64,000 nucleotides of DNA from Candidatus Thorarchaeota archaeon (GCA_048882325.1 JBHLRS010000002.1:1-64000); one strand, 5' to 3'. Counted from the first letter of the stretch, positions 4,825 to 64,000 are shown. Program-made: numbers and translations. The notes: generated by a model from the letters alone, not told the origin.

Positions 4825-5445
4825 TCAGCGAACAATACCAACTTTGACTGTTGATACAAGTGCATCTTTGATCTTATCCCATTGGAATTTCATTCCAGCT
4901 GTTATTAAGAGGTTTGATAGACCATTGATGGCACTAAGCAGAATAGTTGCAACACTGTTGGGATCAACGTCCTTTCGAAATTCCCGAGTCTGAACTCCCT
5001 CCTCTATTGTGCTCTCCAACAGTTTGACGACTGCGAGTTGTTGCTCTCGATGTTGTTTCCTCATTTTTGGCAATCTCGAAGAGGCAACCTGAAACTCTAA
5101 GTCCATACGACACATCACCTCAGAAACATCACAGATTGAAGCAAAAACCAAGTCTGCAGCCTTCTCCAGTTTTGCCAAAGCAGTTGGTTCTTGGTCAATA
5201 GCTGATTTGAGCTGGTTGTAGTTTATTGTAGCAAACCTCTTCTGAAGTTCAAGAAAGAGAGTTTCCTTGCTGTCAAAGTAACCGTAGATAGCTCCTTTAC
5301 TAAATCCACTCTCTGTCACAATGTCATCAATAGATGTTTCATGATACCCCTTTTTTGAAAACAGGGATAGGGCCGCTTGCAGGATCTTTTCCTTCATCAT
5401 GGTCTTATATTCATCAGATACTTTTGGAGACAATTTCAACACCAC
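4825..5445 (-). CDS. TetR/AcrR-family transcriptional regulator
   Basis: ILQAALSLFSKKGYHETSIDDIVTESGFSKGAIYGYFDSKETLF. Confidence 0.93.
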   Translation of the reverse strand: MVLKLSPKVSDEYKTMMKEKILQAALSLFSKKGYHETSIDDIVTESGFSKGAIYGYFDSKETLFLELQKRFATINYNQLKSAIDQEPTALAKLEKAADLVFASICDVSEVMCRMDLEFQVASSRLPKMRKQHREQQLAVVKLLESTIEEGVQTREFRKDVDPNSVATILLSAINGLSNLLITAGMKFQWDKIKDALVSTVKVGIVR

Positions 5446-5459
5446 ATGTCATATATATA

Positions 5460-5477
5460 AAACTGACCAGTCGGTTT
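5460..5477. promoter_or_regulatory. putative TetR operator (copy 1), upstream of tetR
   Basis: Imperfect palindrome AAACTGACCAGTCGGTTT next to a minus-strand TATA-like TTTATATT; near-identical copies at 6930 and 6961. Confidence 0.75.
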
Positions 5478-5496
5478 AATATAAATCTTGTGTAAT

Positions 5497-5529
5497 AAAG
5501 AAGGAGGTGTGCCCTTGAAATCAAGGGCA
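5497..5529 (-). terminator. hairpin + pyrimidine tail downstream of the MFS gene
   Basis: Inverted repeat TGCCCTTGA-aa-TCAAGGGCA, followed on the minus strand by CACCTCCTTCTTT. Confidence 0.6.
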
Positions 5530-5543
5530 ACAAACCGTCAATC

Positions 5544-6902
5544 CTACTCCTGATCAGGAGTAATCTCACCAAGAGTCTTTATGGACCTGTTCAAAATACC
5601 AAAGATTCCGACCATAGCGAGGAGAATTCCACCGACAAGATACCATGCCTGGATACCGAAAGCATCCCCGATTCCTCCAGCTAAAGCCAGACCTATGGGG
5701 GTCATAGCAGGACCAAGACTAATTAGGACAGTGAAGACTCGACCCTGAATTTCGGGGGGTACAATCGACTGAACCACGGCCATTATTGAACCACTGGCTA
5801 ATGGGATCATCATTCCAGCAACGAACATTGCACCTATAGCGAGTTGAATGAGATTCGCAGGTGCAAGTCCAACCATAAAGATGCTTACCGATCCTGTAAG
5901 GATTGCGACCAATGCAGTTACCATTCTTCTCTTGAAACCACCCCAAACACCAAGTGTAACGCCTCCTAGTACCATTCCAATACCCATCATTGACTCGATC
6001 CAAGCTAGCTCGAATGCACCACCTGCAAAGTGGAGTAGTACGAGGAGTGGGGTGAGCGCAAAGGTGGGAATCAGAACGACATTGGTCATCATTAAGCCAA
6101 AAGTCAGGAACCTTCCACCTTTCCAGTTCTTCATGTAAGAGAACCCTGTCACGATATCTTGAGCAACCCCAGAAATACCAGAGTTGGATTTTGAGGTTGG
6201 GAAATTAGGTTGAGGGATTCCGATGAATAATAGCGGTAGTATGGCCATTGCAGCTGTAGCTACATCTAGCAGGATCGTATAGTGTATAGGCAGTAGAACT
6301 AGAAGGAGAGCTCCTAAAGCAGGCGCAGCTATCCTTGCCAGACCTTGTAGAGCCTGATACATACCATTCACTCTTGAGAGGTGCTCATCAGGAACCATTA
6401 AGGAAGCTGAAGCTTGCAGAGCAGGCCATTGGAAGCTGCCCATTGTTGACCGAATTGCCATAACAGCGAAGACATGTATGATATCAACAACACCCATGGA
6501 CCAGAGCAATGATAACCCCACAATAGTAAGAGCAGAAAGGGCATCTGCAGCAATCATGACTCGTTTTCGATTCCATCGGTCGACCAACGCCCCAGAAAAT
6601 GGACTGACTAATATCTGAGGTAAGACCACCATCATCGTCGCTAGGGAGAGAACAACTGCACTCCCGGTCGTAAATGTCAGCCACCAAACAAGTGTGAACT
6701 GGACAAGTGCACTTCCAACCAATGAGAATGCTTGCCCACTAAAGATCTTCATATAGTCACGAGTTTGATTTCTCATCAGATCTGGTGTCTGAAGAGGATT
6801 TTCCACAGGCACTAATTCAGTGGGAGATACTACTATTGTAACCTGCTGAGTGCTCTGTGTTGTGCTATTGGATTTTGCTTCGTTTCTTGAAATTAAACTC
6901 AA
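5544..6902 (-). CDS. MFS efflux transporter (DHA3/MefA-like)
   Basis: GQAFSLVGSALVQF, motif A GALVDRWNRKRVM, about 12 hydrophobic segments, QGRVF; true start may be downstream. Confidence 0.9.
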   Translation of the reverse strand: MSLISRNEAKSNSTTQSTQQVTIVVSPTELVPVENPLQTPDLMRNQTRDYMKIFSGQAFSLVGSALVQFTLVWWLTFTTGSAVVLSLATMMVVLPQILVSPFSGALVDRWNRKRVMIAADALSALTIVGLSLLWSMGVVDIIHVFAVMAIRSTMGSFQWPALQASASLMVPDEHLSRVNGMYQALQGLARIAAPALGALLLVLLPIHYTILLDVATAAMAILPLLFIGIPQPNFPTSKSNSGISGVAQDIVTGFSYMKNWKGGRFLTFGLMMTNVVLIPTFALTPLLVLLHFAGGAFELAWIESMMGIGMVLGGVTLGVWGGFKRRMVTALVAILTGSVSIFMVGLAPANLIQLAIGAMFVAGMMIPLASGSIMAVVQSIVPPEIQGRVFTVLISLGPAMTPIGLALAGGIGDAFGIQAWYLVGGILLAMVGIFGILNRSIKTLGEITPDQE

Positions 6903-6929
6903 TTGCGTGAACCTTCCTTTGAATTAATA

Positions 6930-6978
6930 AAACCGACTGGGCGGTTTTTATTATTAAAATAAACTGACTAGTCGGTTT
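6930..6978. promoter_or_regulatory. putative TetR operators (copies 2 and 3), upstream of the MFS gene
   Basis: AAACCGACTGGGCGGTTT (6930-6947) and AAACTGACTAGTCGGTTT (6961-6978); the second overlaps TTTATAAA (6976-6983). Confidence 0.75.
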
Positions 6979-7074
6979 ATAAATGTTTTGCTTTTGCTTA
7001 ACGGAGCAATCTTTCAATGACAGCTGAAACGTAATGATTATTTTAGAGAAAATCCTCGCTACAATGATTACAAA

Positions 7075-7992
7075 ATGGATATTGTCGACAAGCAGCTACT
7101 AACAGAACTCACAAGAAACTGTAGAAGCTCCTATCAGGACCTCAGTCTGAAGTTTGGCTTTACTGCCAATGCGGTAAGGAAACGTATCGACAAACTTCTT
7201 GCTAATGGCACACTTTATTCATTCACGATTCGTCCTGCATTGAATTCGATGAATGGGAATATTGCAATTTCATTAATCGAAACTGATGGCGATGAATCAC
7301 CAATTGAATTCATGGAATCGCTTGGGACCAATGAAATGGTTGGAGAGATCAATCCAATTGCGACCAAAGATAGAGGATTCTATTTGGTCATTTCTGACTA
7401 TATCGGAGCTGATGGGATTCTCGAACTTGGTGCTTTCTTCAGAAAGCTTGACCATGTCGACAAGGTGACTATGCATCCAGTAATAACTGATCAATTCTAT
7501 CATGGCAAGTCTGTTGAATTCAAGCAACTGGACCTCAGAGTGATGAAGCATCTGGCTCATGATGCAAGGATGCCAATTAGTAAGTTAGCAGAGAAAGCCA
7601 ATTTGACTGCACGTAGAGTTCGCAACATTCTGAAAAGACTCAATGAAGATCAAGGTCTAATCTTCACAATTAGATGGAACACAGCAGCGGCTGGAGCTGT
7701 CAGGGTTTTCATCGTAGGTGAATACGATCAGAAAAAGTCAGACCACGAGAATGTTGTCAACTGGCTTCAAAAAGAGTATCCAAAGGAATTCTGGCTTTAC
7801 TGGATTTCAACAAATGAGCCAACTATTTTCGCTAGCTTTGCAGTAGATTCCATAGAGGAAGCCAGAGTAATATCAATCGAGATTCAAAAGAATACAATGC
7901 TGAAATCAATCAATACTTGGTTGTGTTATCCACCTATGAAGTTCAAAACTTTTCCAGAAATCTGGTTAGAAGATATGCTTGCTGATATTTAG
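7075..7992 (+). CDS. Lrp/AsnC-family transcriptional regulator, tandem
   Basis: MDIVDKQLLTELTRNCRSSY... and DLRVMKHLAHDARMPISKLAEKANLT; paralogue of 48..962. Confidence 0.9.
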   Translation: MDIVDKQLLTELTRNCRSSYQDLSLKFGFTANAVRKRIDKLLANGTLYSFTIRPALNSMNGNIAISLIETDGDESPIEFMESLGTNEMVGEINPIATKDRGFYLVISDYIGADGILELGAFFRKLDHVDKVTMHPVITDQFYHGKSVEFKQLDLRVMKHLAHDARMPISKLAEKANLTARRVRNILKRLNEDQGLIFTIRWNTAAAGAVRVFIVGEYDQKKSDHENVVNWLQKEYPKEFWLYWISTNEPTIFASFAVDSIEEARVISIEIQKNTMLKSINTWLCYPPMKFKTFPEIWLEDMLADI

Positions 7993-8044
7993 TTTGAAAT
8001 GCAATGACATCTGTTATGTAAAGATGAGGTTATCGAGATTTTTA

Positions 8045-8230
8045 CTATATCAGGAAATATTGGAGGAAAGAACAAGACTGGACATCCTCCCTCAATGATC
8101 CAGTACCAATCAGAGGATCATCAAATCCTGATTTTTCAACGACGCGCTCTGTTACGTTGAAAACTTTGTGAGCAACAACCAGAGTAATCAATAACGATAT
8201 CAGCCACGCAAAAAGGATTGGATCTATCAT
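8045..8230 (-). CDS. small membrane protein (uncertain)
   Basis: ATG start followed by a hydrophobic helix ILFAWLISLLITLVVA. Confidence 0.35.
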   Translation of the reverse strand: MIDPILFAWLISLLITLVVAHKVFNVTERVVEKSGFDDPLIGTGSLREDVQSCSFLQYFLI

Positions 8231-8683
8231 AGCAATCAGGGTGTAAGTGTATTAATTGAATATGATATCTCGCCAAAGAGATGGTTGGTCTTCCATCCAT
8301 TTGGTTCACTATTTGACCTAAAACAGAACGCTCTACTTCGTTTTCATGTAGTTATGGGAAAGAATAGACAAAGGCGTGATCCTCGCACCCTTGCGGAGTG
8401 TATCAGACCTAGCACGTATATTTATGGCATTGTCTTTATCAATAAAGTACGATTGCGAGAGGGATTGGCATATTTCTTCCAATATAGTCTGAAGTTCCGA
8501 AGCAGCTATACAACGAGTTTGCATCTTTGGTACTAATTGGTGGAATGGCAAGTACTTCAAAAGTGGTCATCATCATTTGAGGTTCGAATTGAGGAGAAAA
8601 GGCATGAGAAACAAAGTTCAGCATTCACGAGCTTCTCAACTTCTGTTGGACTTAGATTCTCTATTTGATTTCTAGACGTATGG

Positions 8684-9985
8684 TCACCTACGTTTCACAA
8701 TAACTATTACTGATATTATGAATACCCCGCTCATAACTCCCATAAGAATAAGAGTGGGCGGAAAAACGAGAGAGTTAGTAGGAGACGTAGACGGTATTGT
8801 CGGAGATGTAGTTTGGAATGTATTTGTGGGAGCAGGTTGTTGTGTCAATTGAGTCCATTCATTATTGTTTGGATCATAAGCCCATGTCTTCCCGTATGTA
8901 ATTAAATCATTACTACTAAGACCACCAAAAGCTCCGCCATATATTATAATACGATCTGATTCGGTATCGTATGCTGCGTTGTGACGACTTCTTTCAGGAG
9001 GACTAGGGATAAGGCTACAGCAAGGACCAAATGGACTCATTTCTGTCCAGCTTACTGTGTTGTAATCAAAGAACCAAAAATCACCATATACATCATTCTT
9101 TATACCACCTCCAAAAAGGACAACAATGTCCGATTCACTATCATATGCAAATGAAAAGGATGCGCGTTCAGATGGATGGACAATGTTTGTGAGGTTCTCC
9201 CAAGTATCACTATTATAATCATAAGCCCAAGTATCAGAAAAGAAGTAGGATTTATTGGCAATTACATGAAAGCCTCCAAAGAGAATTACTCTATCACTCT
9301 CTGAATCATAAGTCATTTTATGATTTGAACGAGTCGAGGGAAAAATACTAGGACTCATCATTTGCCACTCGTTGATTTCAGGATCAAAAACCCAAGTTCG
9401 ATTATCATAGGCATCACGTCCGCCAAACATGATTATCTTGTCACTTTCTATGTCATATGCCATGCCGTGCGCCCTTCTAGAATCAGGAGTATTAATTGGA
9501 AATAGCTGAGTCCAATTGTTTGTGTTGTAATCAAAAATCCAAGTGTCGTTTTGAGATTCCAGAGTTGATAAATCATGCATCCCACCAAAAACGAGAATTC
9601 GATCTCGGTGGGAATCATAAACTAAGGGAGATTCTGATCGACCCGGAGGCCTTATTTGTGGATTCAGTTTGGTATATGTATCCAAATTGAAATTATAAGC
9701 CCAAGTTTCGTTTTGGTCTTTGGATGAAACAGATAGATTCCATCCACCAAATATGATTATTCTGTCTGATTCCTCATCATATACTAATCCTGAGTCTCCT
9801 TTTACTGGGAGAATAGACTGATCACTCAGAATAATTCCCGTATCGAGTGTACTGGTGAGTTCCGAAGTTTCAGCACCATCTGGAACTATTAGAAATAGGT
9901 TTGTGTATCTAGCTGTTGATAAAACAAGTAGAGAAACAATGATTATCCTTAGAGCATATTGAATTCTGATTCTCACATGATTCAT
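8684..9985 (-). CDS. Kelch-repeat beta-propeller cell-surface protein
   Basis: About 6 repeats of YDxESDRxIxFGG...TWxYD; N-terminal signal-like segment, Thr/Pro/Ser linker, C-terminal TM helix + KRR. Confidence 0.9.
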   Translation of the reverse strand: MNHVRIRIQYALRIIIVSLLVLSTARYTNLFLIVPDGAETSELTSTLDTGIILSDQSILPVKGDSGLVYDEESDRIIIFGGWNLSVSSKDQNETWAYNFNLDTYTKLNPQIRPPGRSESPLVYDSHRDRILVFGGMHDLSTLESQNDTWIFDYNTNNWTQLFPINTPDSRRAHGMAYDIESDKIIMFGGRDAYDNRTWVFDPEINEWQMMSPSIFPSTRSNHKMTYDSESDRVILFGGFHVIANKSYFFSDTWAYDYNSDTWENLTNIVHPSERASFSFAYDSESDIVVLFGGGIKNDVYGDFWFFDYNTVSWTEMSPFGPCCSLIPSPPERSRHNAAYDTESDRIIIYGGAFGGLSSNDLITYGKTWAYDPNNNEWTQLTQQPAPTNTFQTTSPTIPSTSPTNSLVFPPTLILMGVMSGVFIISVIVIVKRR

Positions 9986-52002: not shown

Positions 52003-52917
52003 GTGCCTAAGGCAATCTATTCTATATGGTGGGATGACGTTCTCGGGCCATCAGTTGGACGTTCATTCCCTGAGGAAGGTGCACTGACGAGCGAAGAAGC
52101 TTTAATCGTTTTCATGGGTCATGGTGTGAATCGAGAGGCCGAGGTAGGATACTCAAAATTGACAAGAGGATTGATTATTTCTTACATGAAACCACCTAAC
52201 TGTATAGCGATTCTTCTGGATGATAATGACAATACTCCAGCCATAGAACGAAACCTCCTACGCCTTGTGAAATACATTGATTTCAACAGTGATAAATGGG
52301 ATGCTGAGCTAGAACGAGCATTTCAGCTGCTAAATGAACTTATAGATGAAACAAGTGGAGCATCGCTCCTTACAAATCCTGGTGTCAAGAAACTTGTGGA
52401 GGATATGTCAAGTAATAGAGTGACATCTCTGAAGCCTAAACACGTTCTACGTGCATCAGTTAGATATCCTGAGGCTCATGATTATCTTGGTTCAGATGAT
52501 GACGAAGTCGTTAGAATGCTAAAGGATCTTGATGATGAGAATGTTCTTGAGTCTCGCACATACGGTCGCCGCGTTGTTTGCAGGCAATGTGGAGATTCAG
52601 ACCTAACTGTTGAGCTATTGTGTCCTAATTGCGATTCGAATGATATTCATAAGGTGTATACACTGTTTTGTCCCAAGTGTAGCAATCAATTCCATGCGGT
52701 TTTAGTTGACGATATCGCAGAAGTCACTTGTTTGAACTGCAAAGAACCAGTCAAGGTTGGTGAATTGGCAATCCTTGATGTTGAACCTCTATGCAATAAA
52801 TGTGGAACTGCATCCAGTGACCCTAGGATAGTCTTTCGATGTGCGACTTGTGGGAAACATCTGCGTGGAGCAGACCTACTCGCAGGTACTGGATTAGCAT
52901 ATTATCGAAAAGAGTGA
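52003..52917 (+). CDS. uDENN/longin-like N-terminal domain + wHTH/multi-Zn-ribbon (TackOD1-like) protein
   Basis: IWWDDVLGPSVGRSFP N-terminus; six CxxC pairs after LKDLDDENVLES. Confidence 0.65.
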   Translation: MPKAIYSIWWDDVLGPSVGRSFPEEGALTSEEALIVFMGHGVNREAEVGYSKLTRGLIISYMKPPNCIAILLDDNDNTPAIERNLLRLVKYIDFNSDKWDAELERAFQLLNELIDETSGASLLTNPGVKKLVEDMSSNRVTSLKPKHVLRASVRYPEAHDYLGSDDDEVVRMLKDLDDENVLESRTYGRRVVCRQCGDSDLTVELLCPNCDSNDIHKVYTLFCPKCSNQFHAVLVDDIAEVTCLNCKEPVKVGELAILDVEPLCNKCGTASSDPRIVFRCATCGKHLRGADLLAGTGLAYYRKE

Positions 52918-53845: not shown

Positions 53846-55441
53846 CTACTTCTTCTTCTTCTTTTTCTTTACAGTCTTCTTGACCACCGAACGAGCTGCC
53901 TTCAGAATCTTCTCGGCACCAGCGACACTGAGACCCTCAATCTTAGGGGCCAATCTTTGAGCAGACTCACCAGCTAACTGTGCGGCGGACCCATACCCTG
54001 CAGCTATTAGCTTTTTCTCAAGGCTCTCACCTATGCCGGGAACTCTACGCAAGGGAAGCATTTCCTTGAACTCATCGCCCAAGATGTCTTCAAACTCACT
54101 GTCACTCACATCATTAGAAGCGTCGATGATGTCTAGCTGACTCCGTATTGATGCAAAGTCCTCAGCACCTACAAAGGCATCGACTGTCCGTTTCACTTGT
54201 CGTTCATCAAAATCTAGGTCTAAATCCTCCATCTCGATTTCCCTGCCAAGGGTTGCCGGGAGCGGCCCGGTTAGATAAAGTGCGCCTAAAGAGAGAAGAA
54301 TTGCCATCTGTCCTCCAACTGCCGAGAGTAAGCTAGGTGCATCAAAGGTGATACCCATTATCACGACATTTATGTCCAATCCCCAAAAGAGGGTCATATA
54401 ACCAAGGAAGAAGAACCAGTATAATGAAAGTCGAAATCCCTTTGATTTCACAGGACCAAGTTCAGGCCAAATCAAGAGTAAGCACAAGCCAAGCAAGTAA
54501 CCTTCCACAACTCTCTCTGAGATTAGCAGAGCATCCAACCAATTGGTATCAACAAAGGTAGACCCAAAGATAGTCAGTAATCCCATCAATAGGATTACAA
54601 AACGAAAAGCAGTCTTCCTACCATACCGATCAGATATGAACCCAGCAAGTAGAATTGAAATAATAAATGGCACCATCTCAAGTATCCCGAGGTTGGCTGA
54701 CTGACTTAATGAAATGAATGAGGGAGTTTTAGACAGTTCCAGATTTGTGACCGTATACCAAAGCAAATGTGCTCCAAGAATGAAAGTCATTGGAACGAAA
54801 TACTTGAAGGAACTTCCTGTGATAGTCAGTGAAGCTCGAGCAACTTTCCAAGGTCTAAATGAAGCTGATAGTAGGATTGCGACAATCGACACCATTGTTG
54901 GAAGTGTAATATCATTTGTCAGAACTGCCAAAAAAGAGATACTTTCCATGTATCTATAGAGTGAAGCAATAATAACAGCTGTTGCTAGGAACACTGCTAC
55001 TGTTCTGCCGCGAAAACGCAGTACTACACTCTGATTGATTCTGGCAGACCAAGAAATGAGCATCAATGCTAGACATCCAAAGGTCATTGTTGAGAGAAGA
55101 ATGGGGTACATCTCAGTATAATCAGAACCAATCTCGAGAATACTGAGTAGTCCAATGAAACTTGGAATTAATGCTGCAAAATACATCAAAAAATCGTGTT
55201 TTCGGATTCGATCCACAAGCAATCCAGAAAGGGGTAATGCAAAAACCGTAGTCAAAGCTCCATAACCTAGAAGACCGTAATGATCTTCAATTGACATACC
55301 AAGGTAGCCAAACAAAGTTCCTGACAAAAGGCCAGTAATCACATAAATTGAGAAAGCCATAGGAACTGCGAGTAGTACATAGATAAACATCGTCTTCAAT
55401 GGAAAATCGCGGTACTCTAACAAATCCGTTCCACCTTTCAA
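53846..55441 (-). CDS. MFS-like membrane protein fused to a C-terminal helix-hairpin-helix domain and poly-Lys tail
   Basis: GLLVDRIR, RFRGR, GFISDRYGRK; C-terminal LRRVPGIGESLEKKL...IEGLSVAGAEKI; KKKKKKK. Confidence 0.8.
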   Translation of the reverse strand: MKGGTDLLEYRDFPLKTMFIYVLLAVPMAFSIYVITGLLSGTLFGYLGMSIEDHYGLLGYGALTTVFALPLSGLLVDRIRKHDFLMYFAALIPSFIGLLSILEIGSDYTEMYPILLSTMTFGCLALMLISWSARINQSVVLRFRGRTVAVFLATAVIIASLYRYMESISFLAVLTNDITLPTMVSIVAILLSASFRPWKVARASLTITGSSFKYFVPMTFILGAHLLWYTVTNLELSKTPSFISLSQSANLGILEMVPFIISILLAGFISDRYGRKTAFRFVILLMGLLTIFGSTFVDTNWLDALLISERVVEGYLLGLCLLLIWPELGPVKSKGFRLSLYWFFFLGYMTLFWGLDINVVIMGITFDAPSLLSAVGGQMAILLSLGALYLTGPLPATLGREIEMEDLDLDFDERQVKRTVDAFVGAEDFASIRSQLDIIDASNDVSDSEFEDILGDEFKEMLPLRRVPGIGESLEKKLIAAGYGSAAQLAGESAQRLAPKIEGLSVAGAEKILKAARSVVKKTVKKKKKKK

Positions 55442-55548
55442 GATGTGCGACTCATCAACCTGTTATGGATGTTTCGGGCTACACAACAATTTCGGAGCGA
55501 TATCTTAAAGACTATTCAGAATCTGGAAAAGACAAGGAGAGTAAGTGT

Positions 55549-56457
55549 TTGGTAGACAAACTCGGTGTCAATGAGTTTATGGTCCTCACTGCAGGAGGTA
55601 CACCAATCTTCCATTATTCAAAAACAGAAACAAGAAAGCTGGATGAGCTGTTGTCAGGCTTTCTTAGTGCAATGACAAGTTTCGCCACTGAGTTTGGAGA
55701 GAAGTCAATTCAGAGATTGTCATTTGAAGGATCAGAGCTACTCTATGAGCAGTTTGGATCTGAGTACTTGTTCATCTTTCTCGTTGATTCGGGCTCCTCA
55801 GAGAAAGTTCTACGTGTTGTATTAAGAGAACTCAGTAAACGCTTCCTATCTAGATATCAGACTGAACTGAAAATGGATATTCCCGTGCTTGATGTTTTCA
55901 TGGATTTCCAGACTGATGTGCAAGGAGTCTTAGCATATTATGAGGGAATACTTGTAATTATGTCAAGTCTAAGTGCGTTTGTTATACCTGAAGCTAAGAA
56001 GGATAACATGGATATCGCAATTAGAAGTGGAGGATTTCTAGACGAGTTTCATCGAGACCTCGGCAACTCTGGCAACCGTGTTTTGTCAGCCATTGATGGT
56101 CAGACATCTATCTATGATATGAGTAGAAACTTGGGTTTAGCAGAACCCGAGATTTCTGAGGTAGTCGAATACCTAGCCATAAGGGGGCTTCTCAGAATAT
56201 CAAAACTTTGTCCCTTAATTCAGGAGAAAGATGCTCGATTTGATGCGTACCTCGATTTAATCGGTCTTCCAAGTAAGGACTATCAGCTCCTTGATAGAGC
56301 GAAGTCACTTTGCAACGGTGATCGTTCCCTAGTAGATATCAGTGAACGCCTAGGTGTGGTTCCCGAACAGCTCTATGAAGTTCTTGAGAAGCTCGGTGAT
56401 GAAGTTGAGTGGAAGCTCATTGAAGTAAGTGGTCTAGTGGATGACCCAATGTCTTGA
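55549..56457 (+). CDS. longin + tandem winged-helix protein (NPRL2-like architecture)
   Basis: FMVLTAGGTPIFHY...LLSGFLSAMTSFA longin pattern; AIDGQTSIYDMS and CNGDRSLVDIS wHTH units; TTG start after AAGGAG. Confidence 0.7.
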   Translation: MVDKLGVNEFMVLTAGGTPIFHYSKTETRKLDELLSGFLSAMTSFATEFGEKSIQRLSFEGSELLYEQFGSEYLFIFLVDSGSSEKVLRVVLRELSKRFLSRYQTELKMDIPVLDVFMDFQTDVQGVLAYYEGILVIMSSLSAFVIPEAKKDNMDIAIRSGGFLDEFHRDLGNSGNRVLSAIDGQTSIYDMSRNLGLAEPEISEVVEYLAIRGLLRISKLCPLIQEKDARFDAYLDLIGLPSKDYQLLDRAKSLCNGDRSLVDISERLGVVPEQLYEVLEKLGDEVEWKLIEVSGLVDDPMS

Positions 56458-56538
56458 AAAGCAATTATCGTTCCGGCAAAGGTATTAAGTGCCTTCGTAT
56501 ACCTCATGAATAGCTCGTGCTGATAGGAGGCCACCTCC

Positions 56539-57816
56539 TTGGTTAAAGAAATCATTGTGCTTCGAGATACAGGAATTCTCCTTTTCCACTACAGTGTTAG
56601 TGGAACTCGAAGACTTGATGAGCTTGCAGCAGCTTTTCTTTCTGCAGTCGGTTCATTTGCCAAAGAGGTGAGCCAAGATAGAATTACAGTCATGTCATTC
56701 GCCAAGAACAAACTGGTTTGGGAGCGAAAGGGAGACCTCTACTTTATTGCACTAGTTTCAGAAGAGGATAGTGGGGAGATTCATAGAGTAATACTGCAAG
56801 ATCTTGCTGAGCAGTTTGTCAGTATGTTCTATTCCGATCTTAGAAGAGAGCTTCCTGACTCGAAAAAGTTTCGTGCTTTTGCAGATACTGTTGAGGTGAC
56901 CCTCCAAAAATTCGATGGAATACCTGGATTGGCCCGACGCTACAAAACAATACTACTACCTGCAGAAGATCTAAACACCTTGAAACGAGTGTTATCAGAA
57001 GTCGAGGTCAATCGGGACATTCTTCGAGGCGGCATGGTTTCCTCAAAAGGTTACGTTTCCGTTTCAAATCTGAGGGCATATGAACTCGAAGCGGCATTAG
57101 ACTTCCTACCAACTGTGAAAGAAAAAGTTGAGATGAGGGAACACTCTAGTCTTGAGAAAGGAACTGCATTCCTCTTAGTTCAGATTCCAAAAAAGGGTCT
57201 ATGCGCTTTCGTAGTCAAACTTGGGATGTCTGAGAAAACCTATCTGGATCTTATCAATCCCTTCACTTCGCTCCTCCAACTGACGAGTTTCGAGAATGCG
57301 AGGAAATTTGAACCTGACAAGGTCGAAGGTCCAATCTCGTTCTACGATTTTGATGCTGTTTCAATAGCTATTCCTGAAGAAGACCTTAGACGAGAAACCA
57401 AGATGTCTCTATCATCATTTTCTGATAGTATTCAGGCAGGAGCAGTGCGACTCGTAAATTCTATTACTGAAACCTCCACAGTAGCGGATGTGGTTGAAGC
57501 AAGCGGTCTTATTCGTGAACAAGCAGACGAGGTCCTTGCGCAGTTGATCGCAAAAGGAGTGTTGCGAATTTCAAAACTGTTTCCTGTAATGGAAGATAGG
57601 GATGAAAGATTCGTTGCTTATCTTGAGGTCATCGGAATCAAAAAAAGGGATTTTGATATTGTCGATTCTATCTGGAAATACTGCAATGGAAGTCTATCTC
57701 TAAGGGAGATTTCTGAGAGGTCAGATATCCCAGCCCAAAGAATACTCGACGTCCTTAGAGCACTAGGTAATCATGTGCAATGGTTGAAGGAGAGGATGCT
57801 AAGTCATGTCAGGTAA
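56539..57816 (+). CDS. longin + roadblock-like + tandem winged-helix protein
   Basis: IIVLRDTGILLFHY...LAAAFLSAVGSFA longin; GGMVSSKGYVSVSNL roadblock-like; C-terminus homologous to the upstream paralogue; AGGAGG SD. Confidence 0.7.
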   Translation: MVKEIIVLRDTGILLFHYSVSGTRRLDELAAAFLSAVGSFAKEVSQDRITVMSFAKNKLVWERKGDLYFIALVSEEDSGEIHRVILQDLAEQFVSMFYSDLRRELPDSKKFRAFADTVEVTLQKFDGIPGLARRYKTILLPAEDLNTLKRVLSEVEVNRDILRGGMVSSKGYVSVSNLRAYELEAALDFLPTVKEKVEMREHSSLEKGTAFLLVQIPKKGLCAFVVKLGMSEKTYLDLINPFTSLLQLTSFENARKFEPDKVEGPISFYDFDAVSIAIPEEDLRRETKMSLSSFSDSIQAGAVRLVNSITETSTVADVVEASGLIREQADEVLAQLIAKGVLRISKLFPVMEDRDERFVAYLEVIGIKKRDFDIVDSIWKYCNGSLSLREISERSDIPAQRILDVLRALGNHVQWLKERMLSHVR

Positions 57817-58558
57817 AATAGTTTCAATTCATAGTTTCAGAGGTGGAACCGGAAAGTCAAACATAGCAGCGAATCTAGCTGCAGCAGCTGCATTGGATGG
57901 AAAACGAGTAGCAGTTATGGATACAGATATGGCATCTCCCGGTATTCATGTCATCTTCGGTTTGGGTCGAGAGAAGATGAAGTACACCCTTAATGACTAT
58001 CTTCGGGGATCTTGTGATATCACAGATGCATGCGTAGACCTCACAAATCGACTGAGTATCAAGCAAGGTAAACTGTTCCTCATCCCCAGCTCAATGACTG
58101 CCACAGACATAACAAGAATATTGAGAGAGGGGTATGAGGTTGGTGACCTCAAGAAAGGTTTCACAGATGTGATTAAGAAGAAGGATCTTGATTACCTGAT
58201 TATCGATACACACCCCGGACTCGATCGAGAAACTTTGTTGTCAATGGCAACAGCAGACTATCTGTTCGTAGTTGCCAGAATCGACGAACAGGATTTGCTT
58301 GGAACAGCTGCAACGTTGAGCGTTGCCCGGAAATTGCAGGTACCAGACATTCGAATCATCATTAACAAAAAGCCTGGGATTTACGAGAACAAAGCTATCA
58401 CTTCAGAGGTGGAACAGAAGTTTAAGACAACAGTTGCCACAATCATCCCATTACTTCCATTGTTAATCGAAGCTGGGAGTCGATATGTGGTAACACTACG
58501 CCACCCTGATAGTGAGTTCACAAAAAACATCGAAGAGATTTATAGATTGATGAAGTAA
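57806..58558 (+). CDS. MinD/ParA-family ATPase
   Basis: HSFRGGTGKS, MDTDMASPG, IIDTHPG, IINK; overlaps the upstream stop. Confidence 0.9.
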   Translation: MSGKIVSIHSFRGGTGKSNIAANLAAAAALDGKRVAVMDTDMASPGIHVIFGLGREKMKYTLNDYLRGSCDITDACVDLTNRLSIKQGKLFLIPSSMTATDITRILREGYEVGDLKKGFTDVIKKKDLDYLIIDTHPGLDRETLLSMATADYLFVVARIDEQDLLGTAATLSVARKLQVPDIRIIINKKPGIYENKAITSEVEQKFKTTVATIIPLLPLLIEAGSRYVVTLRHPDSEFTKNIEEIYRLMK

Positions 58559-58788: not shown

Positions 58789-59238
58789 ATGGATATAGAT
58801 GTGAGACTCGCAACAGCACAGGACAGGTCTTTGATAGAGGAGTTCTATGTGCGAGAAGGAAAAAACTTCCAACAACTTATACTTCATTCAGGTTCTACTC
58901 CGGTGGGAGCTAGTAGTGAAACCATGTTTGTGGTTGCAGTTACTAGAGGTATGGTTGTCGCTGCGTTGAAGCTTGATATTGCAAGAGACCCCGCAATGGG
59001 ACGGGTCGGGTTCATTCGATATTTTGAGATTGAGGATGACCTTGAAGAAACTGATTTGGGTCAGAAGATGTTGAATAAGACAACAGAGATTGCGGAGGAA
59101 AAGGGACTTCGAGCCTTGAATGCAGTCTTTGATGTGGGAAGGGCAGATCTCTTTGACCTTTATACCGAATCTGGTTATAGAGAGGAACGGAAAGAGGTCT
59201 GGTTGCGTAAAGATTTCCGTCCTGGTGTCTTTGGATGA
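58789..59238 (+). CDS. GNAT-family N-acetyltransferase fold protein
   Basis: VRLAT, MFVVA, LGQKML...AEEKGL, LYTESGY; acetyl-CoA motif degenerate. Confidence 0.8.
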   Translation: MDIDVRLATAQDRSLIEEFYVREGKNFQQLILHSGSTPVGASSETMFVVAVTRGMVVAALKLDIARDPAMGRVGFIRYFEIEDDLEETDLGQKMLNKTTEIAEEKGLRALNAVFDVGRADLFDLYTESGYREERKEVWLRKDFRPGVFG

Positions 59239-61071
59239 TTAGCCAGTAAGTGAGCTCAGACCAAGACTCTTGATTGTTTCCTCTGTTGGAACACCATTCT
59301 TGTCCCAACCCCGAAGTTCATAGAATCGGTCTAGTGATTTCTCAAAATCCTCCCTATTGAGAAAAGCTTTCATCCCTTTTGCTGGACCATCTGTCTCCTC
59401 TTCCCAGAAACGTGCTGGAAGTGTATCATCGTTTCTTGTTAGACCTTCTCTGATGTTGAAGAGACGAGCGAGGGTTTCAACCCTCTGAGCGAATGAAGCT
59501 ATACTCTCTTTGTCATAATTATGTCCAGTGGCTCCATTGAGCATAGTGATATTTTGGCCATGCTTCAAAGGCATGTGATAAGTGAAATGGCAAACAACTA
59601 AACTATCGCGTAGAATTTTGATATCTCTCTGTTCAATCAACGACTCAATCACATCAAGAGCAGATGAGTCTGGTTGATCAGTGGTCTGAGGCCATCCCCG
59701 AAGATGACTCGCGCCCATACTTGAGGTGGCATATGAAAGACCCATTCCTTTTTTGCCTCTTGGATCCCATGCAGGAACATCTATGCCCTTGACATGTACA
59801 GCGAAGGTTTCACTTCCCTTGCCAATCTCAATCGACGCTTGGTGAACGCCCTTTGCAAGGATTGCACCAATTCCTTCTTTGTATGCGATCAATTTGAGAA
59901 GCTTCTTTGCACCTTCAAAGTCTCCAAATGGTAGTGGAAACCCGATGTCTTCTTCTGTTAGTACACCTTTTTCAAAAGCCTCCATCGCAAACCCGATTAC
60001 TCCCCCGGCTCCTATAGTATCGATACCCAGGTCATCACAAAGATAGGTTAATTGAAAGACACACTGAGGATCATGAATCCCAAGATTTCCTCCACAGAGT
60101 CCCAGTGTTTCATATTCGACAGTCGCTTCGACTTCGGTTCCTGGAATGAGTGGATGGTCGGTTTTGTATCCACGAGTACATCGCATTATACAATGCGGGC
60201 AGGAGAGATGTGTACCCATGCTCCATGTTTCAAACTCTTCTGGAGTTAAAGATTCATATCCTTCAAAGTACCCATTCTGGAAATTTCGGGTTGGAAATTG
60301 TCCCCTTTCGTTAGAGACCTCCACGAGGAAAGGAGTACCATATTTCTTGAAGTCAGAATCAGGCTTCTCATTCCAGAACTTAGTGACTGCCCTATTCACC
60401 TCCCGAATAGTATCACGATTATCAGCTTTTATAGTGTTAGTTCCTCTGACAACAACACCTTTGAGATTCTTGGATCCCAGAATTGCTCCTGCGCCCCCTC
60501 TACCTGTTTGATGAGCTAGCTCACAACATCCAGTTGCAGACAGCACAAGATTCTCGCCAGCAGGGCCAATCACGTAAACTGCTGAGCCCTTGTTTGTTCT
60601 TTCATGAAGAATACTCGTCGCTTCCTGTGTACCCTTCCCCCAGATATCCTGTGCGTTTTCAAACCTAACAGAGTCATCCTCTACCACTAAGACGACGGGA
60701 TTATCGGATTTCCCCATGACTGCAATAGCATCATATCCCGCATTCTTGATCTCTCTTCCCAAAGGACCTCCACAGTGCGTATCCAAGAAGAAACCAGACA
60801 AAGGGGATTTGGTGATTAACGACCATCGACCTACATTCGGAGCAGGAAGACCTTGAAGTGGTCCTGTCATGAAGAATAGAATGTTCTCAGAGTCCAGAGG
60901 GTTGACTCCCTGCTTCAGATATCGATACAGTAGATAGGTGCCAAGACCTTTTCCACCTACGAAGTCTTTGTAGACCTGATGTGCAAGTTCCTCAGTACGA
61001 GTTCTTTTTGAGGTCAGGTCTACCCAGAGTATTTTGCCATTCCAACCTTTGAATCTCATGATAATGGACAT
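59239..61071 (-). CDS. aor: aldehyde:ferredoxin oxidoreductase (AOR family)
   Basis: GKILWVDLT, GGKGLG, KSPLSG, GRGGAGA.LGSKNLK, CPHCIMRC, EYET, DPRG, HLR, RGWD..GVP. Confidence 0.92.
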   Translation of the reverse strand: MSIIMRFKGWNGKILWVDLTSKRTRTEELAHQVYKDFVGGKGLGTYLLYRYLKQGVNPLDSENILFFMTGPLQGLPAPNVGRWSLITKSPLSGFFLDTHCGGPLGREIKNAGYDAIAVMGKSDNPVVLVVEDDSVRFENAQDIWGKGTQEATSILHERTNKGSAVYVIGPAGENLVLSATGCCELAHQTGRGGAGAILGSKNLKGVVVRGTNTIKADNRDTIREVNRAVTKFWNEKPDSDFKKYGTPFLVEVSNERGQFPTRNFQNGYFEGYESLTPEEFETWSMGTHLSCPHCIMRCTRGYKTDHPLIPGTEVEATVEYETLGLCGGNLGIHDPQCVFQLTYLCDDLGIDTIGAGGVIGFAMEAFEKGVLTEEDIGFPLPFGDFEGAKKLLKLIAYKEGIGAILAKGVHQASIEIGKGSETFAVHVKGIDVPAWDPRGKKGMGLSYATSSMGASHLRGWPQTTDQPDSSALDVIESLIEQRDIKILRDSLVVCHFTYHMPLKHGQNITMLNGATGHNYDKESIASFAQRVETLARLFNIREGLTRNDDTLPARFWEEETDGPAKGMKAFLNREDFEKSLDRFYELRGWDKNGVPTEETIKSLGLSSLTG

Positions 61072-61086
61072 CCAGATTTTTTCGCT

Positions 61087-61236
61087 CTAATCAATCTCAA
61101 TCTTTGTAATCTTTTCAAGATTGATGTCTCTCAGATTATCGAGTAGCGCCATCAATACATCATTGATTATCCTAGCAACAAAGTCGTTCATGTGAATCTC
61201 TTTTCCCTGTACATACAATACGAAATCAGCTGTCAT
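61087..61236 (-). CDS. 49-aa protein resembling the C-terminal domain of archaeal MobB (not in ORF track)
   Basis: MTADFVLYVQGKEIHMNDFVARIINDVLMALLDNLRDINLEKITKIEID*; directly upstream of aor, same strand. Confidence 0.65.
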   Translation of the reverse strand: MTADFVLYVQGKEIHMNDFVARIINDVLMALLDNLRDINLEKITKIEID

Positions 61237-61399
61237 GGATAGACAACAAATCAACGCAGCATATTAGTCTTACAGAAGTGCTATGTATGAGCTAGTGCTT
61301 AGGAATTGTGATGTGGAGCCGAGTCCGATACGCATTTATACCCTTCATCTTCGTACCATCGCGACTGATGGTGACCATCACCAAGTGAGGAATTCAGAT

Positions 61400-63337
61400 A
61401 TGTCCCAGTTGAGTTCATTAAAGTCAGTAATTAGTGGTGCTGACCAATCGGAAGAACGCGTTGGAAGATTAGCAGGTTTTGGAAGTATCTTTGGAATTAT
61501 AGCAGCTGCATTCGGCCTTATAATGGGTAAGACTCTCATTCCAGTTCCTGGGTTGAGATGGGAGGTGTTTTCCCTTGTACCTTTCGATTGGATGATGGAA
61601 GGAAGTGATCAATATACTCTATTTGTTGCCATTTTCATGGGTCTAATGGCTGCAGCTCTTCTTCTCCAAGGTTTAGGTTCTAGGAAACTTGGAAGTTTCT
61701 TAGGCAGCGGGTTTGTCAATGTTTTTTGGGGAGGTTTTGTGTTTGCAGTTGCAACTGCATATTTCGTTCCAACATCTTTTGCTAGAGTTTTCAGTAACTC
61801 ACTCATTCCAAATTTCATGCCTCTGATGTATTTCCTTGGAGCGTTCTTTGTAATATGCTGGCAACTGACAGCGATAATATATACGGATTCGAGTAAAACT
61901 TGGATTGGTTTCCTCGCTGGTATTCTGAACGCTTTATTTATACCAATGCTTGCAATTGGACAAGCAATCAGTCCAACACTAATCTATGTAGCCTATGGTA
62001 TTCTTCTCGTCGGCCAGTTGACGGCTCTTTTATTCTGGTGGTCACCCTTCAACACTATTCGTGAATTCGCGAGAAGTCCTGACAAAGCCAAAATCGCCTT
62101 TGGATTAAGTGGTTTCGTGACTTTTGCAATTGGACTTGCTGCAATCATTGTCGGTCCAATGGGCATCGAACAAGACATACCAGTCTGGTACCCTTGGAGC
62201 ACATTAGTGAGTGAAACAACATACCTAACTAATCCAGCACTTGTCTTTAGCTTGTTGGCTTTTATGATCTATTGGATTATGTTGGCTCCAAGGCTTGGCG
62301 CCCGAGAACTAAAAGCAGCAGCTATAGGAGAGGACATAGTCAAAGGCGGGAACAAATACTTCATGATGCTCATGGCGATAATGGGACTGATCGCTGCGGG
62401 ACAAGCTGGTGCGTACATAAGCGGAGTTGGAACATGGGGTTTCTTCCTGGTTACAGGACCTGCTGGTGTGATGTTCATTATGGGTGCGTCTTACACTGCA
62501 AAGACCGATATGATTACAGGAATACCATTAGTGGTAACATCCGTTTTTCTTATGGTCCATCCATTTGTCCTTCAACCACTTGTATTCTTGCCATGGATCT
62601 TAATCCTCGTGAGTCAATTCCTTCTGATGATTGAGTCTTGGTGGAGAGGACTTACAGGATTCTCACAAGGAGCACTGGCGGTTATAACCAGTCTCGCCGC
62701 GTCTCTAGCAATAATTATCTTCATGACTGGAGGATTTGGTAGTGGTCCTCTCGCACTTTGGCCAACAAACCGTTGGTTCAACATTACTTTGATTCCTGGA
62801 GTACCTGCAGCAATTCAAGGACCAGCAATCATTGTCCTACCTCTCTTGATACTCCTGATTAGGAATGTGTCCTTAGCGGGATATTCGTATGGTCGTGGAT
62901 ACACTACAGGTGGCATTCTTATGGGTGCAAGTGTTTTGTTCGCGTTCATGATTCCAGCTATTGCAGGAAATGAGAGTGTCGCACATGAGGCTAACACTGG
63001 AGCAGCTCTACTACTAGCATTATACTCTATCAGCCTTGTGCTAGTCATGTCACTTAACATCAATCTAGCAAACGACGTGGAGGACCAAGGTCACGGGTTT
63101 GAAGGTAGCCTAATCAAAGTATCAACTGTTGCAGGACTTATTGCAGCAGCTGTTGTTGTTATTCTAGTGTTGGTAGTCTTTGCTGGAATGCCATCACCCA
63201 CAGAGATTGCTACAATGATTTCAATCATGGTGACCTTTGTGGTTGCGAGTGAGGTTCTATCTATCATAGGCTGGTTCATTGCAGGTGTTAGACTGGGAAT
63301 GCTGAAGGAAGGCTTTAGTTTCTCGAGAATCAAATAA
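61400..63337 (+). CDS. large polytopic membrane protein of unknown function
   Basis: Very many hydrophobic helices (about 18-20 by eye); start placed at MSQLSS. Confidence 0.8.
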   Translation: MSQLSSLKSVISGADQSEERVGRLAGFGSIFGIIAAAFGLIMGKTLIPVPGLRWEVFSLVPFDWMMEGSDQYTLFVAIFMGLMAAALLLQGLGSRKLGSFLGSGFVNVFWGGFVFAVATAYFVPTSFARVFSNSLIPNFMPLMYFLGAFFVICWQLTAIIYTDSSKTWIGFLAGILNALFIPMLAIGQAISPTLIYVAYGILLVGQLTALLFWWSPFNTIREFARSPDKAKIAFGLSGFVTFAIGLAAIIVGPMGIEQDIPVWYPWSTLVSETTYLTNPALVFSLLAFMIYWIMLAPRLGARELKAAAIGEDIVKGGNKYFMMLMAIMGLIAAGQAGAYISGVGTWGFFLVTGPAGVMFIMGASYTAKTDMITGIPLVVTSVFLMVHPFVLQPLVFLPWILILVSQFLLMIESWWRGLTGFSQGALAVITSLAASLAIIIFMTGGFGSGPLALWPTNRWFNITLIPGVPAAIQGPAIIVLPLLILLIRNVSLAGYSYGRGYTTGGILMGASVLFAFMIPAIAGNESVAHEANTGAALLLALYSISLVLVMSLNINLANDVEDQGHGFEGSLIKVSTVAGLIAAAVVVILVLVVFAGMPSPTEIATMISIMVTFVVASEVLSIIGWFIAGVRLGMLKEGFSFSRIK

Positions 63338-63368
63338 TTGCCGCTCCAACCAATTAGAGTGATTAACA

Positions 63369-64000
63369 TTGGTTCCTGATGTAAAGGGTATAAAGACCCA
63401 CGCAGAAGGAGCCACTGTTGCATTTCTATTAATTCATGGTTTTGCAGCGTCAACAGACGAAGTGACAACGCTAAGTGAATTCTTGGCTAATCTGGGATAT
63501 GCATCCTTCGCTGTACAATTAGAAGGCCATGGAACCACTCCTGAAGAATTCAAAGCAACTACTTGGGGAGACTGGTTAGATTCCGCTAAAAGAGGACTCG
63601 AAGTAGTGCGTTCATGGAAACCTAAACATCTTTTCATTGGGGGTGTATCAATGGGTGGTCTCCTTTCCTTACTGATAGCAGGTGAAGAAGATGATATTAG
63701 CGGTATAGTAACGCTTGGAGCTGCGTTAAAAATTCCAGGAATTCTACCCAAGTTATTTCCTATTCTCAAGTATTTTATGAAGTGGCGTGACATCGATCTC
63801 GAAAAAGCGCAACGAGTTTATGATGTGAAGCGATTCAAATATGATAGGGAACCGGTTTCGGCATACGGAGAGCTCTTCGCTCTGCAGAAACTCGTTTGGA
63901 ATAATTTGCAGAAGGTAACGATACCAGCACTCATTCTTCAAGGACTTGAAGACAAAACAGTTGATCCAGCTAGTAGTCAGATCATCTTCGATGGGATTTC
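63369..64000 (+). CDS. alpha/beta-hydrolase carboxylesterase (partial, runs off the window; not in ORF track)
   Basis: LLIHGF, LEGHG, WGDW, nucleophile motif GVSMGG, PALILQG..DKTV. Confidence 0.88.
   Translation, partial: MVPDVKGIKTHAEGATVAFLLIHGFAASTDEVTTLSEFLANLGYASFAVQLEGHGTTPEEFKATTWGDWLDSAKRGLEVVRSWKPKHLFIGGVSMGGLLSLLIAGEEDDISGIVTLGAALKIPGILPKLFPILKYFMKWRDIDLEKAQRVYDVKRFKYDREPVSAYGELFALQKLVWNNLQKVTIPALILQGLEDKTVDPASSQIIFDGI

Follow-up and report, generated by a model that had tools for sequence, protein, structure and literature searches.

Two paralogous longin and winged-helix proteins, here called A and B, and an adenosine triphosphatase (ATPase) of the ParA/MinD class are encoded by three co-directional genes of one chromosomal operon in Candidatus Thorarchaeota archaeon (GCA_048882325.1 JBHLRS010000002.1:1-64000, a stretch of 64,000 nucleotides referred to below as the window). 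The linkage of longin/winged-helix genes with this ATPase gene is real and old. It extends over Thorarchaeota and Hodarchaeota, usually together with a divergent gene for a membrane protein resembling the major facilitator superfamily (MFS) and ending in a helix-hairpin-helix (HhH) domain, the MFS-HhH protein. By the description given in a recent preprint, the locus is a longin-bearing form of the archaeal ParA-wHTH module (wHTH, winged helix-turn-helix). As to function, the longin/winged-helix proteins may act as partners of the ATPase, a reading that is weighed below against three others.

Organisation of the operon

The features that carry the argument are listed here, with positions counted from the first nucleotide of the window.

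53846-55441, minus strand: MFS-like membrane protein with 12 transmembrane segments, followed by an acidic linker in the cytosol, an HhH domain and a basic end made of poly-Lys; divergent from the operon
55463-55476, no strand assigned: conserved intergenic block 1, which read on the minus strand is the probable B recognition element (BRE) and TATA box of the MFS-HhH gene
55497-55510, plus strand: conserved intergenic block 2, some 40 nt ahead of the start of A and probably the BRE/TATA of the A-B-ATPase operon
55536-55539, plus strand: GGAG ahead of A, downstream of block 2
55549-56457, plus strand: protein A, 302 amino acids, in which a longin domain (residues 1-105) is joined by a long linker of helices to a pair of winged helices (about 161-295); acidic overall
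56539-57816, plus strand: protein B, 425 amino acids, with a longin domain (1-100), a roadblock domain (137-253) and two winged helices (280-412)
56947-57297, plus strand: roadblock domain of B, without counterpart in A, from VIA structural matches
57806-58558, plus strand: ParA/MinD-class (SIMIBI) ATPase of a variant subfamily, 250 amino acids, from Pfam AAA_31/ParA/CbiA
57830-57862, plus strand: deviant Walker A motif of the ATPase, HSFRGGTGKSN, from the orthologue alignment

Translation of A starts at a TTG codon (55549), which together with the GGAG ahead of it is kept across genera in the intergenic alignment, and the same 302-amino-acid product (P0125) is obtained from gene callers. Close homologues of A, B and the ATPase bear a thorarchaeal label. 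The start of the ATPase gene overlaps the stop of B by 11 nt, an overlap seen again in many loci. A preliminary description of this DNA had reported two adjacent longin/winged-helix paralogues, the second of which overlaps a MinD-type ATPase with its stop; the reading frames are as it gave them, the motifs it quoted are present in the translations, and the overlapping gene is of the ParA/MinD class.

Alignment of 18 divergent intergenic regions leaves two blocks that are conserved across genera, the rest of the intergenic DNA being unalignable between them. Block 1 has one exact copy in the genome, and its equivalent in Hodarchaeota reads as a BRE plus TATA. An operator-like palindrome was sought in the divergent region and none was found in the two conserved blocks. 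A reading of the blocks as operators was rejected, as BRE/TATA pairs of two divergent promoters fit them better; judged from their sequence, they are probably the promoters of the MFS-HhH gene and of the A-B-ATPase operon.

The ATPase

The product of the third gene exceeds the Pfam cut-offs of AAA_31 (64.3 bits), ParA (56.2) and CbiA (53.3) and, with its P-loop, its DTD motif and its Walker B-like DTHPG motif intact, is placed by these sequence features in the ParA/MinD/Mrp (SIMIBI) superfamily. Identity with canonical MinD was considered and rejected. The NCBIfam models minD_arch (TIGR01969) and minD_bact (TIGR01968) gave 84 and 58.9 bits against cut-offs of 201.75 and 212.9, far below what is required, and the signature lysine of KGGxGK[ST] is replaced by arginine (RGGTGKS). 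The deviant Walker A motif is invariant in 28 orthologues from Thorarchaeota, their sister family and Hodarchaeota, and DTHPG is invariant across the aligned orthologues. Identity of the ATPase amounts to 77-98% across thorarchaeal genera, with a mean column identity of 85%, and the gene is single-copy in the genome. A C-terminal membrane-targeting helix was not obvious by eye, without dedicated analysis. The genome that includes the window (G000) contains about four genes of the ParA/MinD superfamily, and none of its genes reaches the archaeal MinD equivalog cut-off.

Members of the same ATPase subfamily, 49-53% identical, occur in Helarchaeota (L056 4117-6753) and in a further family, f28 (L064 2411-5260), both having the same Walker A motif with arginine for lysine. 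These ATPases follow a tetratricopeptide repeat protein of 513-528 amino acids and a protein of 110-137 amino acids that belongs to no known family, and hhalign of the B profile against the upstream proteins of Helarchaeota gave no relation.

Positioning ATPases of the MinD/ParA type, with their partners MinE, ParB and McdB, share with this locus the ATPase superfamily and the presence of partner genes in the operon. They differ in that no homologues of MinC/MinE or ParB are found here and in that the ATPase is a non-canonical MinD with Arg for Lys. The literature searched yielded nothing on the RGGTGKS motif or on Asgard MinD/ParA proteins with longin domains.

Conservation of the linkage

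Phyletic distribution was followed in a sample of 300 Asgard genomes, and about 60 loci were fetched. In the family of the window (f1), full-length B-type genes were found with the B profile in 72 of 76 sampled genomes and the ATPase (E<=1e-55) in 63 of 76. The single genome of the sister family (f2) has both, and in f12, identified as Hodarchaeota from the label on its ATPase, the counts are 18 of 19 and 17 of 19, respectively. The only other sampled family with an ATPase match is f28 (1/1), where full-length B is lacking. An exhaustive profile search of 1.84 billion representatives returned only 15 clusters at E<=1e-30, so that the full-length family is narrow.

Three layouts recur. In most thorarchaeal genera, the MFS-HhH gene diverges from A, B and the ATPase gene in this order; in Hodarchaeota, it diverges from one B-like gene followed by the ATPase gene; and in four genomes of the thorarchaeal genus g12, it diverges from A followed by the ATPase gene. 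No full-length match to B was found in these A-only assemblies (L061 5286-7038, L062, L063 and L065; G167, G248, G227 and G149), in which the best E-value of the B profile is about 1e-25. The f2 locus consists of one B-like gene paired with the ATPase gene, without an adjacent MFS gene. In a few thorarchaeal loci, genes are inserted between the members, or A or the MFS gene is absent within the fetched flanks. The constant core given by the three layouts is thus one or two proteins with a longin domain and two winged helices, plus the ATPase, and the A-only and one-gene lineages indicate that neither the roadblock domain nor a heterodimer is obligatory.

The MFS-HhH gene stands alongside in nearly all loci, the f2 locus and two thorarchaeal loci being the exceptions; it is syntenic in Thorarchaeota and Hodarchaeota, with the HhH tail kept. 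Its product exceeds the Pfam cut-off of HHH_5 (28.6 bits) and stays below that of MFS_1 (21.5 bits), while an atlas feature search returned MFS clusters at 0.98. The association with the ATPase gene and that with the MFS-HhH gene, both pointed out in the preliminary description, are conserved across Thorarchaeota and Hodarchaeota. Two near-complete thorarchaeal genomes, G128 (97%) and G134 (92%), are without the module.

Where both could be compared, A and B are 44-57% identical between loci and the neighbouring MTD enzyme 49-60%. One thorarchaeal metagenome-assembled genome (MAG) holds two A-B pairs (P0058/P0237 and P0065/P0239; EU527_12105/12110 and EU527_04105/04110) with about 70% identity to the window, owing either to a genuine duplication or to mixing of genomes in the bin.

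The ParA-wHTH system and a proposed role in immunity

An archaeal "ParA-wHTH system", placed in the ConB2 assemblage of ParA ATPases, has been described as a computational prediction only (Li, Burroughs and Aravind, bioRxiv 10.64898/2026.10.19.760177, October 2026; Li et al., 2026 below). ConB2 members are marked by arginine where Walker A usually has lysine and by a PG motif downstream of sensor-1, and the system comprises a ParA gene with one or more wHTH genes whose products have a long N-terminal helix and sometimes a profilin-longin-like fusion; profilin-longin-like domains are said there to accompany TRAFAC and SIMIBI NTPases often (Li et al., 2026). The present locus agrees with this system, itself mainly archaeal, in its ParA-clade ATPase with Arg for the Walker A Lys and in having, directly upstream of the ATPase, proteins composed of a longin domain, long helices and winged helices. 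The window also has DTHPG, which may correspond to the PG motif of the preprint. With arginine for lysine, this candidate PG motif and the architecture of A and B, the locus is filed, by that description, as a probable member of the ParA-wHTH kind. The main text of the preprint does not contain the terms MFS, roadblock, Asgard or Thorarchae (Li et al., 2026).

An NPRL2-like family had earlier been reported in most thorarchaeal MAGs (Liu et al., 2020, bioRxiv 10.1101/2020.10.19.343400), the passages on that family making no mention of an ATPase neighbour. In the light of those passages and of the ParA-wHTH description, the combination is not undescribed, and the statement in the preliminary description that no account of it was known has been overtaken. 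The value of the locus is tempered by the fact that computational predictions of both the NPRL2-like family and the linkage of ParA with wHTH genes are already in print.

The role proposed for the ParA-wHTH system is interception and coating of invader DNA, its wHTH proteins being called rapidly evolving (Li et al., 2026). Applied to this locus, an immune system against selfish elements would have winged helices that recognise invader DNA, an ATPase that forms multimers on it and coats it, and a longin domain that adds multimeric assembly. In keeping with such a role, the ATPase bears Arg for the Walker A Lys, a ConB2 "conflict" mark, and in DTHPG a candidate for the other mark, the PG motif; wHTH genes with an occasional profilin-longin-like fusion accompany ParA in the preprint's system, the membrane protein encoded alongside has an HhH domain and a basic tail with which it could contact nucleic acid, and a few near-complete genomes are without the module. 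The branch represented by the window, however, is slow-evolving, single-copy and fixed among housekeeping genes, as opposed to the rapid wHTH evolution and conflict context of the described system. Identity of its ATPase between genera is 77-98%, the divergence of A and B is about that of the MTD enzyme, and the module has its place among the MTD, AFOR and hydrolase genes even in a genus in which B is 50% identical. Moreover, no effector gene is present, PADLOC gave no match beyond a generic P-loop, and the winged helices of A are acidic. Taken together, these properties fit immunity poorly, and for this locus it is considered unlikely.

Architecture of A and B

A and B match each other by BLASTP over the N-terminal 141 amino acids (3e-23) and over the C-terminal part (2e-24), as paralogues. 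AlphaFold2 models built on the family alignments reached a pLDDT of 84 and a pTM of 0.79 for A and a pLDDT of 75 for B. The modelled N-terminal fold of both is a beta-beta-alpha-beta-beta-beta-alpha longin, which VIA aligns with the longin domains of VAMP7, Sec22b, Ykt6, SRX and Fuzzy at Z 13-15. Residues 137-253 of B form a roadblock domain (VIA Z 11-12.3, root-mean-square deviation 2.4-2.9, 105-116 aligned residues), matching Asgard roadblock proteins, including a solved one from Thorarchaeota, as well as MglB, LAMTOR and the C-terminal domains of Rag proteins. Both models end in two winged-helix units, and A has long helices at residues 120-139 and 162-181. Models and structural alignments thus bear out the earlier assignment of longin folds to both proteins and of an additional roadblock domain to B.

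At the level of sequence, the only curated cut-off reached by A or B is that of Pfam TrmB, which the last winged helix of B exceeds with 33.3 bits; for each paralogue, 23-24 of the 25 orthologues give a match to TrmB (best E 5.8e-11). Neither Fuz_longin_1 nor Intu_longin_1 is matched at its cut-off. Of the Pfam longin models Fuz_longin_1 comes closest, with 23 bits for A and 17.9 for B against a cut-off of 26.1 and sub-threshold matches in 18-22 of 25 orthologues. Sub-threshold matches to Fuz_longin_1, HTH_47 and TrmB are found in most orthologues. NCBIfam offers no family for A or B, and searches of the PDB sequences with phmmer and with profiles gave nothing significant for either.

Protein A is acidic, with an isoelectric point (pI) of 4.6-4.8 for the whole protein and 4.5-6 for its winged helices, and its putative recognition helix has no basic residue. 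Most of B is acidic too, its last winged helix being mildly basic (pI about 9). The acidity of A and of most of B fits protein scaffolding better than DNA binding. The C-terminal winged-helix region of both proteins holds many invariant columns, and residues common to A, B and the Hodarchaeota form map, within the longin domain, to strand 2 and helix 1 and, beyond it, to the linker that joins the winged helices; on the models, these are candidate partner surfaces. Helix 1 is reportedly the usual NTPase-binding face of longin/roadblock platforms.

When a tree is computed from the longin and winged-helix columns shared by the proteins, A and B form separate clades; the Hodarchaeota form groups with B, and A is joined by the f2 protein (97/88). 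Long-branch warnings apply to this tree, which leaves the duplication undated. The only other match of the B profile in genome G000 is a 305-amino-acid open reading frame (ORF) with a longin-like N-terminus, located outside the window (C6:84946-85272, plus strand; E 1e-8).

The winged helices raise the question of transcriptional control. A and B could be TrmB-like transcription factors, with longin and roadblock domains for sensing or dimerisation, that regulate the MFS-like gene and their own operon while the ATPase is a co-regulated passenger. Divergent arrangements of a regulator and a transporter gene are common in prokaryotes, TrmB matches run through nearly all orthologues and pass the Pfam cut-off in the B of the window, the last winged helix of B is mildly basic, and a 14-nt intergenic block is conserved and unique in the genome. 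Against this stand the acidity of A throughout, with a putative recognition helix devoid of basic residues, and the form of the two intergenic blocks, which read as BRE/TATA pairs without a palindrome. The whole-chain fold matches, described in the next section, are to NPRL2/NPRL3, which do not bind DNA. An account in terms of transcription would also leave unexplained why the ATPase is an old and tightly coupled companion, why its gene overlaps B and why its conservation is extreme. The transcription-factor explanation is accordingly judged decidedly unlikely.

Likeness to NPRL2/NPRL3 and to tri-longin Rab GEFs

NPRL2-NPRL3 (Npr2-Npr3 in yeast) form the core of GATOR1/SEACIT, the GTPase-activating protein (GAP) for RagA/Gtr1. 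Like the subunits of the tri-longin guanine nucleotide exchange factors (GEFs), they form longin heterodimers that handle NTPases. In a Foldseek search with protein A, the top 11 PDB hits were NPRL2/NPRL3 chains from GATOR1/SEAC (E 2e-7 to 1e-5, 350-457 columns), which outranked every single longin domain. VIA aligned 274 of its 302 residues in order with NPRL3 at Z 10.2, with a large root-mean-square deviation, and an atlas search listed a eukaryotic NPR2 cluster at a TM-score of 0.41. For protein B, the first hits were Fuzzy, Inturned, Mon1, Ccz1 and HPS1/4 (E 4e-9 to 1e-6, about 270-310 columns), NPRL3 appearing not before E about 5e-4, and VIA aligned 245 residues of B with Fuzzy at Z 12.8.

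Sequence models of the family give less. Pfam NPR2 (PF06218) and NPR3 have no match at E<=1 in A or B, and HTH_NPRL3 (PF24064) stays below its cut-off, with E 0.18 for the B of the window. Sub-threshold matches to it, none reaching 27.2 bits, were given by 4 of the 25 orthologues of A and 5 of the 25 of B (best E 9e-4). The likeness to NPRL2/NPRL3 put forward in the preliminary description is therefore retained for A, in whole-chain fold and architecture, and falls short for B, whose best matches are tri-longin GEFs, and for both at the Pfam NPR2/NPR3 thresholds. The sequence parallel with NPRL2 that was drawn there is unconfirmed: a profile search of the PDB did match the same region of NPRL2 (positions 164-220 of the A profile with NPRL2 182-238), at a non-significant E of about 1 (1.1). 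Nor is an equivalent of the catalytic arginine of NPRL2 evident, as the longin domains of the A and B orthologues hold no invariant arginine. The only widely kept one lies in helix 2 (A R89, B R83) and is replaced in several orthologues, so that an arginine finger is not apparent. On their models, A and B are NPRL2/3-like in architecture and remain candidate members of the family.

Shared with NPRL2/NPRL3 are the pair of paralogues, the N-terminal longin, the helical middle, the C-terminal winged helices and an inserted middle domain in one of the two. The differences lie in scores below the Pfam thresholds, the lack of an invariant Arg and of a linked Rag GTPase, the SIMIBI ATPase as genomic partner and the existence of one-gene lineages. 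The tri-longin Rab GEFs Mon1-Ccz1, Fuzzy-Inturned and HPS1-HPS4 are the best Foldseek matches for B and are heterodimers of paralogues as well; B, however, has one longin, one roadblock and two winged helices, A is without three longins, and no Rab gene is linked. MglB-MglA and Ragulator/Rag, to which the roadblock of B aligns at Z 11-12, work as dimeric platforms and regulate an NTPase from a neighbouring gene. The client there is a Ras-like GTPase, whereas the neighbour here is of the ParA/MinD class, and the roadblock is dispensable in the A-only lineages.

Three further proteins, P0268 (L052), P0356 (L054) and P0306, are distant relatives of the C-terminal winged-helix tandem. Their sub-threshold matches are either to HTH_NPRL3, at E 5e-5 to 8e-5, or, at E 7e-4, to the end of Pfam NPR2. 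No ParA-type gene is near P0268 or P0356 in the two fetched loci. Possibly these three are what Liu et al. (2020) refer to as NPRL2-like proteins of a "few Loki".

The structural likeness would also suit a GATOR1-like GAP or a tri-longin-like GEF for an unlinked small GTPase of the Rag, Rab or Arf type, to which the neighbouring ATPase would be functionally unrelated. Besides the fold matches to NPRL2/NPRL3 and Mon1/Ccz1/Fuzzy, such a role could draw on about ten small GTPases encoded in the genome and on a GGxP motif before strand 2. This motif is present in A (G17 and P19 invariant) and in the Hodarchaeota form, and most B orthologues have GIP; it is similar to a GP motif that GAP longins are reported to have ahead of strand 2 (PMC12290439), is one residue longer than that motif and is lost from B in the genus of the window. 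A small GTPase is linked in none of the about 60 loci, however, and the ATPase always is; the longin arginine is not invariant, and no small-GTPase match in the genome covers the C-terminal roadblock part of Rag. The Gtr1_RagA model is unspecific, matching E. coli too. A search of the genome for IML1/DEPDC5 gave no match and is uninformative, since none was obtained in the control genomes either. Among the explanations considered here, a GAP or GEF for an unlinked GTPase is the least probable, and very unlikely.

Proposed mechanism

The reading tentatively preferred, at a confidence just short of even, is that a longin/winged-helix dimer serves as adaptor and regulator of the co-encoded ATPase and works with the MFS-HhH protein. 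It draws on the conserved gene order and the recurring 11-nt overlap, on the phyletic pattern, on the single copy and strong conservation of the ATPase, on the conserved residues of the longin domain and linker, on the acidity of A and most of B, and on the fold matches to two families of longin heterodimers that handle NTPases. The proteins would dimerise via their longin domains, A with B where both are present and each with itself in one-gene lineages. The dimer would then control the ATP-dependent dimer cycle of the variant ParA/MinD ATPase, by analogy with the longin/roadblock platforms of small GTPases on the one hand and with ParB-, MinE- or McdB-type partners of ParA/MinD ATPases on the other. 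The complex would act at or with the divergent MFS-like protein, whose cytosolic tail has the HhH domain and the basic end. The output might be positioning or tethering with respect to membrane or nucleoid; it might equally consist in controlling or sensing the transporter-like protein, in an action related to DNA, or in defence. Gene order, translational overlap, folds, phyletic pattern and conservation are observed here; dimerisation, ATPase binding, regulation and the connection with the membrane protein are inferred.

Several points weigh against this proposal. The ATPases of Helarchaeota and f28 stand behind unrelated genes, from which it follows that the ATPase needs no longin partner, and the absence of the module from G128 and G134 makes it dispensable. 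The last winged helix matches the DNA-binding models TrmB, HTH_47 and IclR, in B above the Pfam cut-off. As no arginine is invariant in the longin domains, nothing points to GAP activity of the NPRL2/FLCN type. Prediction of a complex of full-length A, B and ATPase from row-matched alignments, in which the ATPase was scored and the A-B dimer itself was not, gave 0.01 against a mark of 0.32; controls were not run, and the value speaks neither for nor against binding.

A more far-reaching version of the adaptor proposal holds that the locus encodes an NPRL2/3-like longin platform regulating a SIMIBI ATPase at a transporter-like membrane protein in Thorarchaeota and Hodarchaeota, a claim regarded as quite improbable.

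Flanking genes

The cluster is flanked by genes for a TackOD1 protein, MTD and the MFS-HhH protein on one side and by a GNAT-like ORF, AFOR, a 684-amino-acid protein and a hydrolase on the other. One further feature lies directly downstream of the operon.

58789-59238, plus strand: weakly GNAT-like ORF of 149 amino acids, about 230 nt downstream of the ATPase gene and co-directional

This ORF keeps its position and orientation in 32 thorarchaeal loci, with 45-89% identity, and is not present in the hodarchaeal loci. Its match to Pfam Acetyltransf_1 (E 0.01) lies below the cut-off, and it may be an accessory or fifth gene of the cluster at the level of the family. On the other side, 52003-52917 (plus strand) encodes a 304-amino-acid protein with a clear zinc-ribbon output domain of the TackOD1 type (66.7 bits), ahead of which is an unassigned N-terminal domain of some 135 amino acids; it is located two genes upstream, and synteny with the MFS-HhH gene is seen in 7 loci. 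Further downstream, positions 59239-63998 correspond to 4897-9857 of locus L001, both carrying aldehyde ferredoxin oxidoreductase (AFOR), a protein of 671-684 amino acids without a Pfam family and an S33-type hydrolase in the same order. As L001 belongs to a thorarchaeal genus whose B is only 50% identical, the chromosomal neighbourhood appears to have been stable for long.

Significance

Asgard genomes encode hundreds of longin and roadblock "eukaryotic signature" proteins without known partners. The conserved operon supplies a candidate partner, the variant ParA/MinD ATPase, together with a candidate membrane component, and with these named its function becomes testable with three or four recombinant proteins. 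The immunity reading of the 2026 preprint fits this slow, chromosomally fixed branch poorly. Beyond Thorarchaeota, the module is present in Hodarchaeota too, a heimdallarchaeial group that is reportedly placed close to eukaryotes. If the platform version of the adaptor proposal were true, the locus would represent a prokaryotic transceptor/longin/NTPase unit, parallel to or ancestral in logic to the SLC38A9-Ragulator/GATOR1-Rag switch, and longin platforms would have served ParA-type ATPases before or beside small GTPases.

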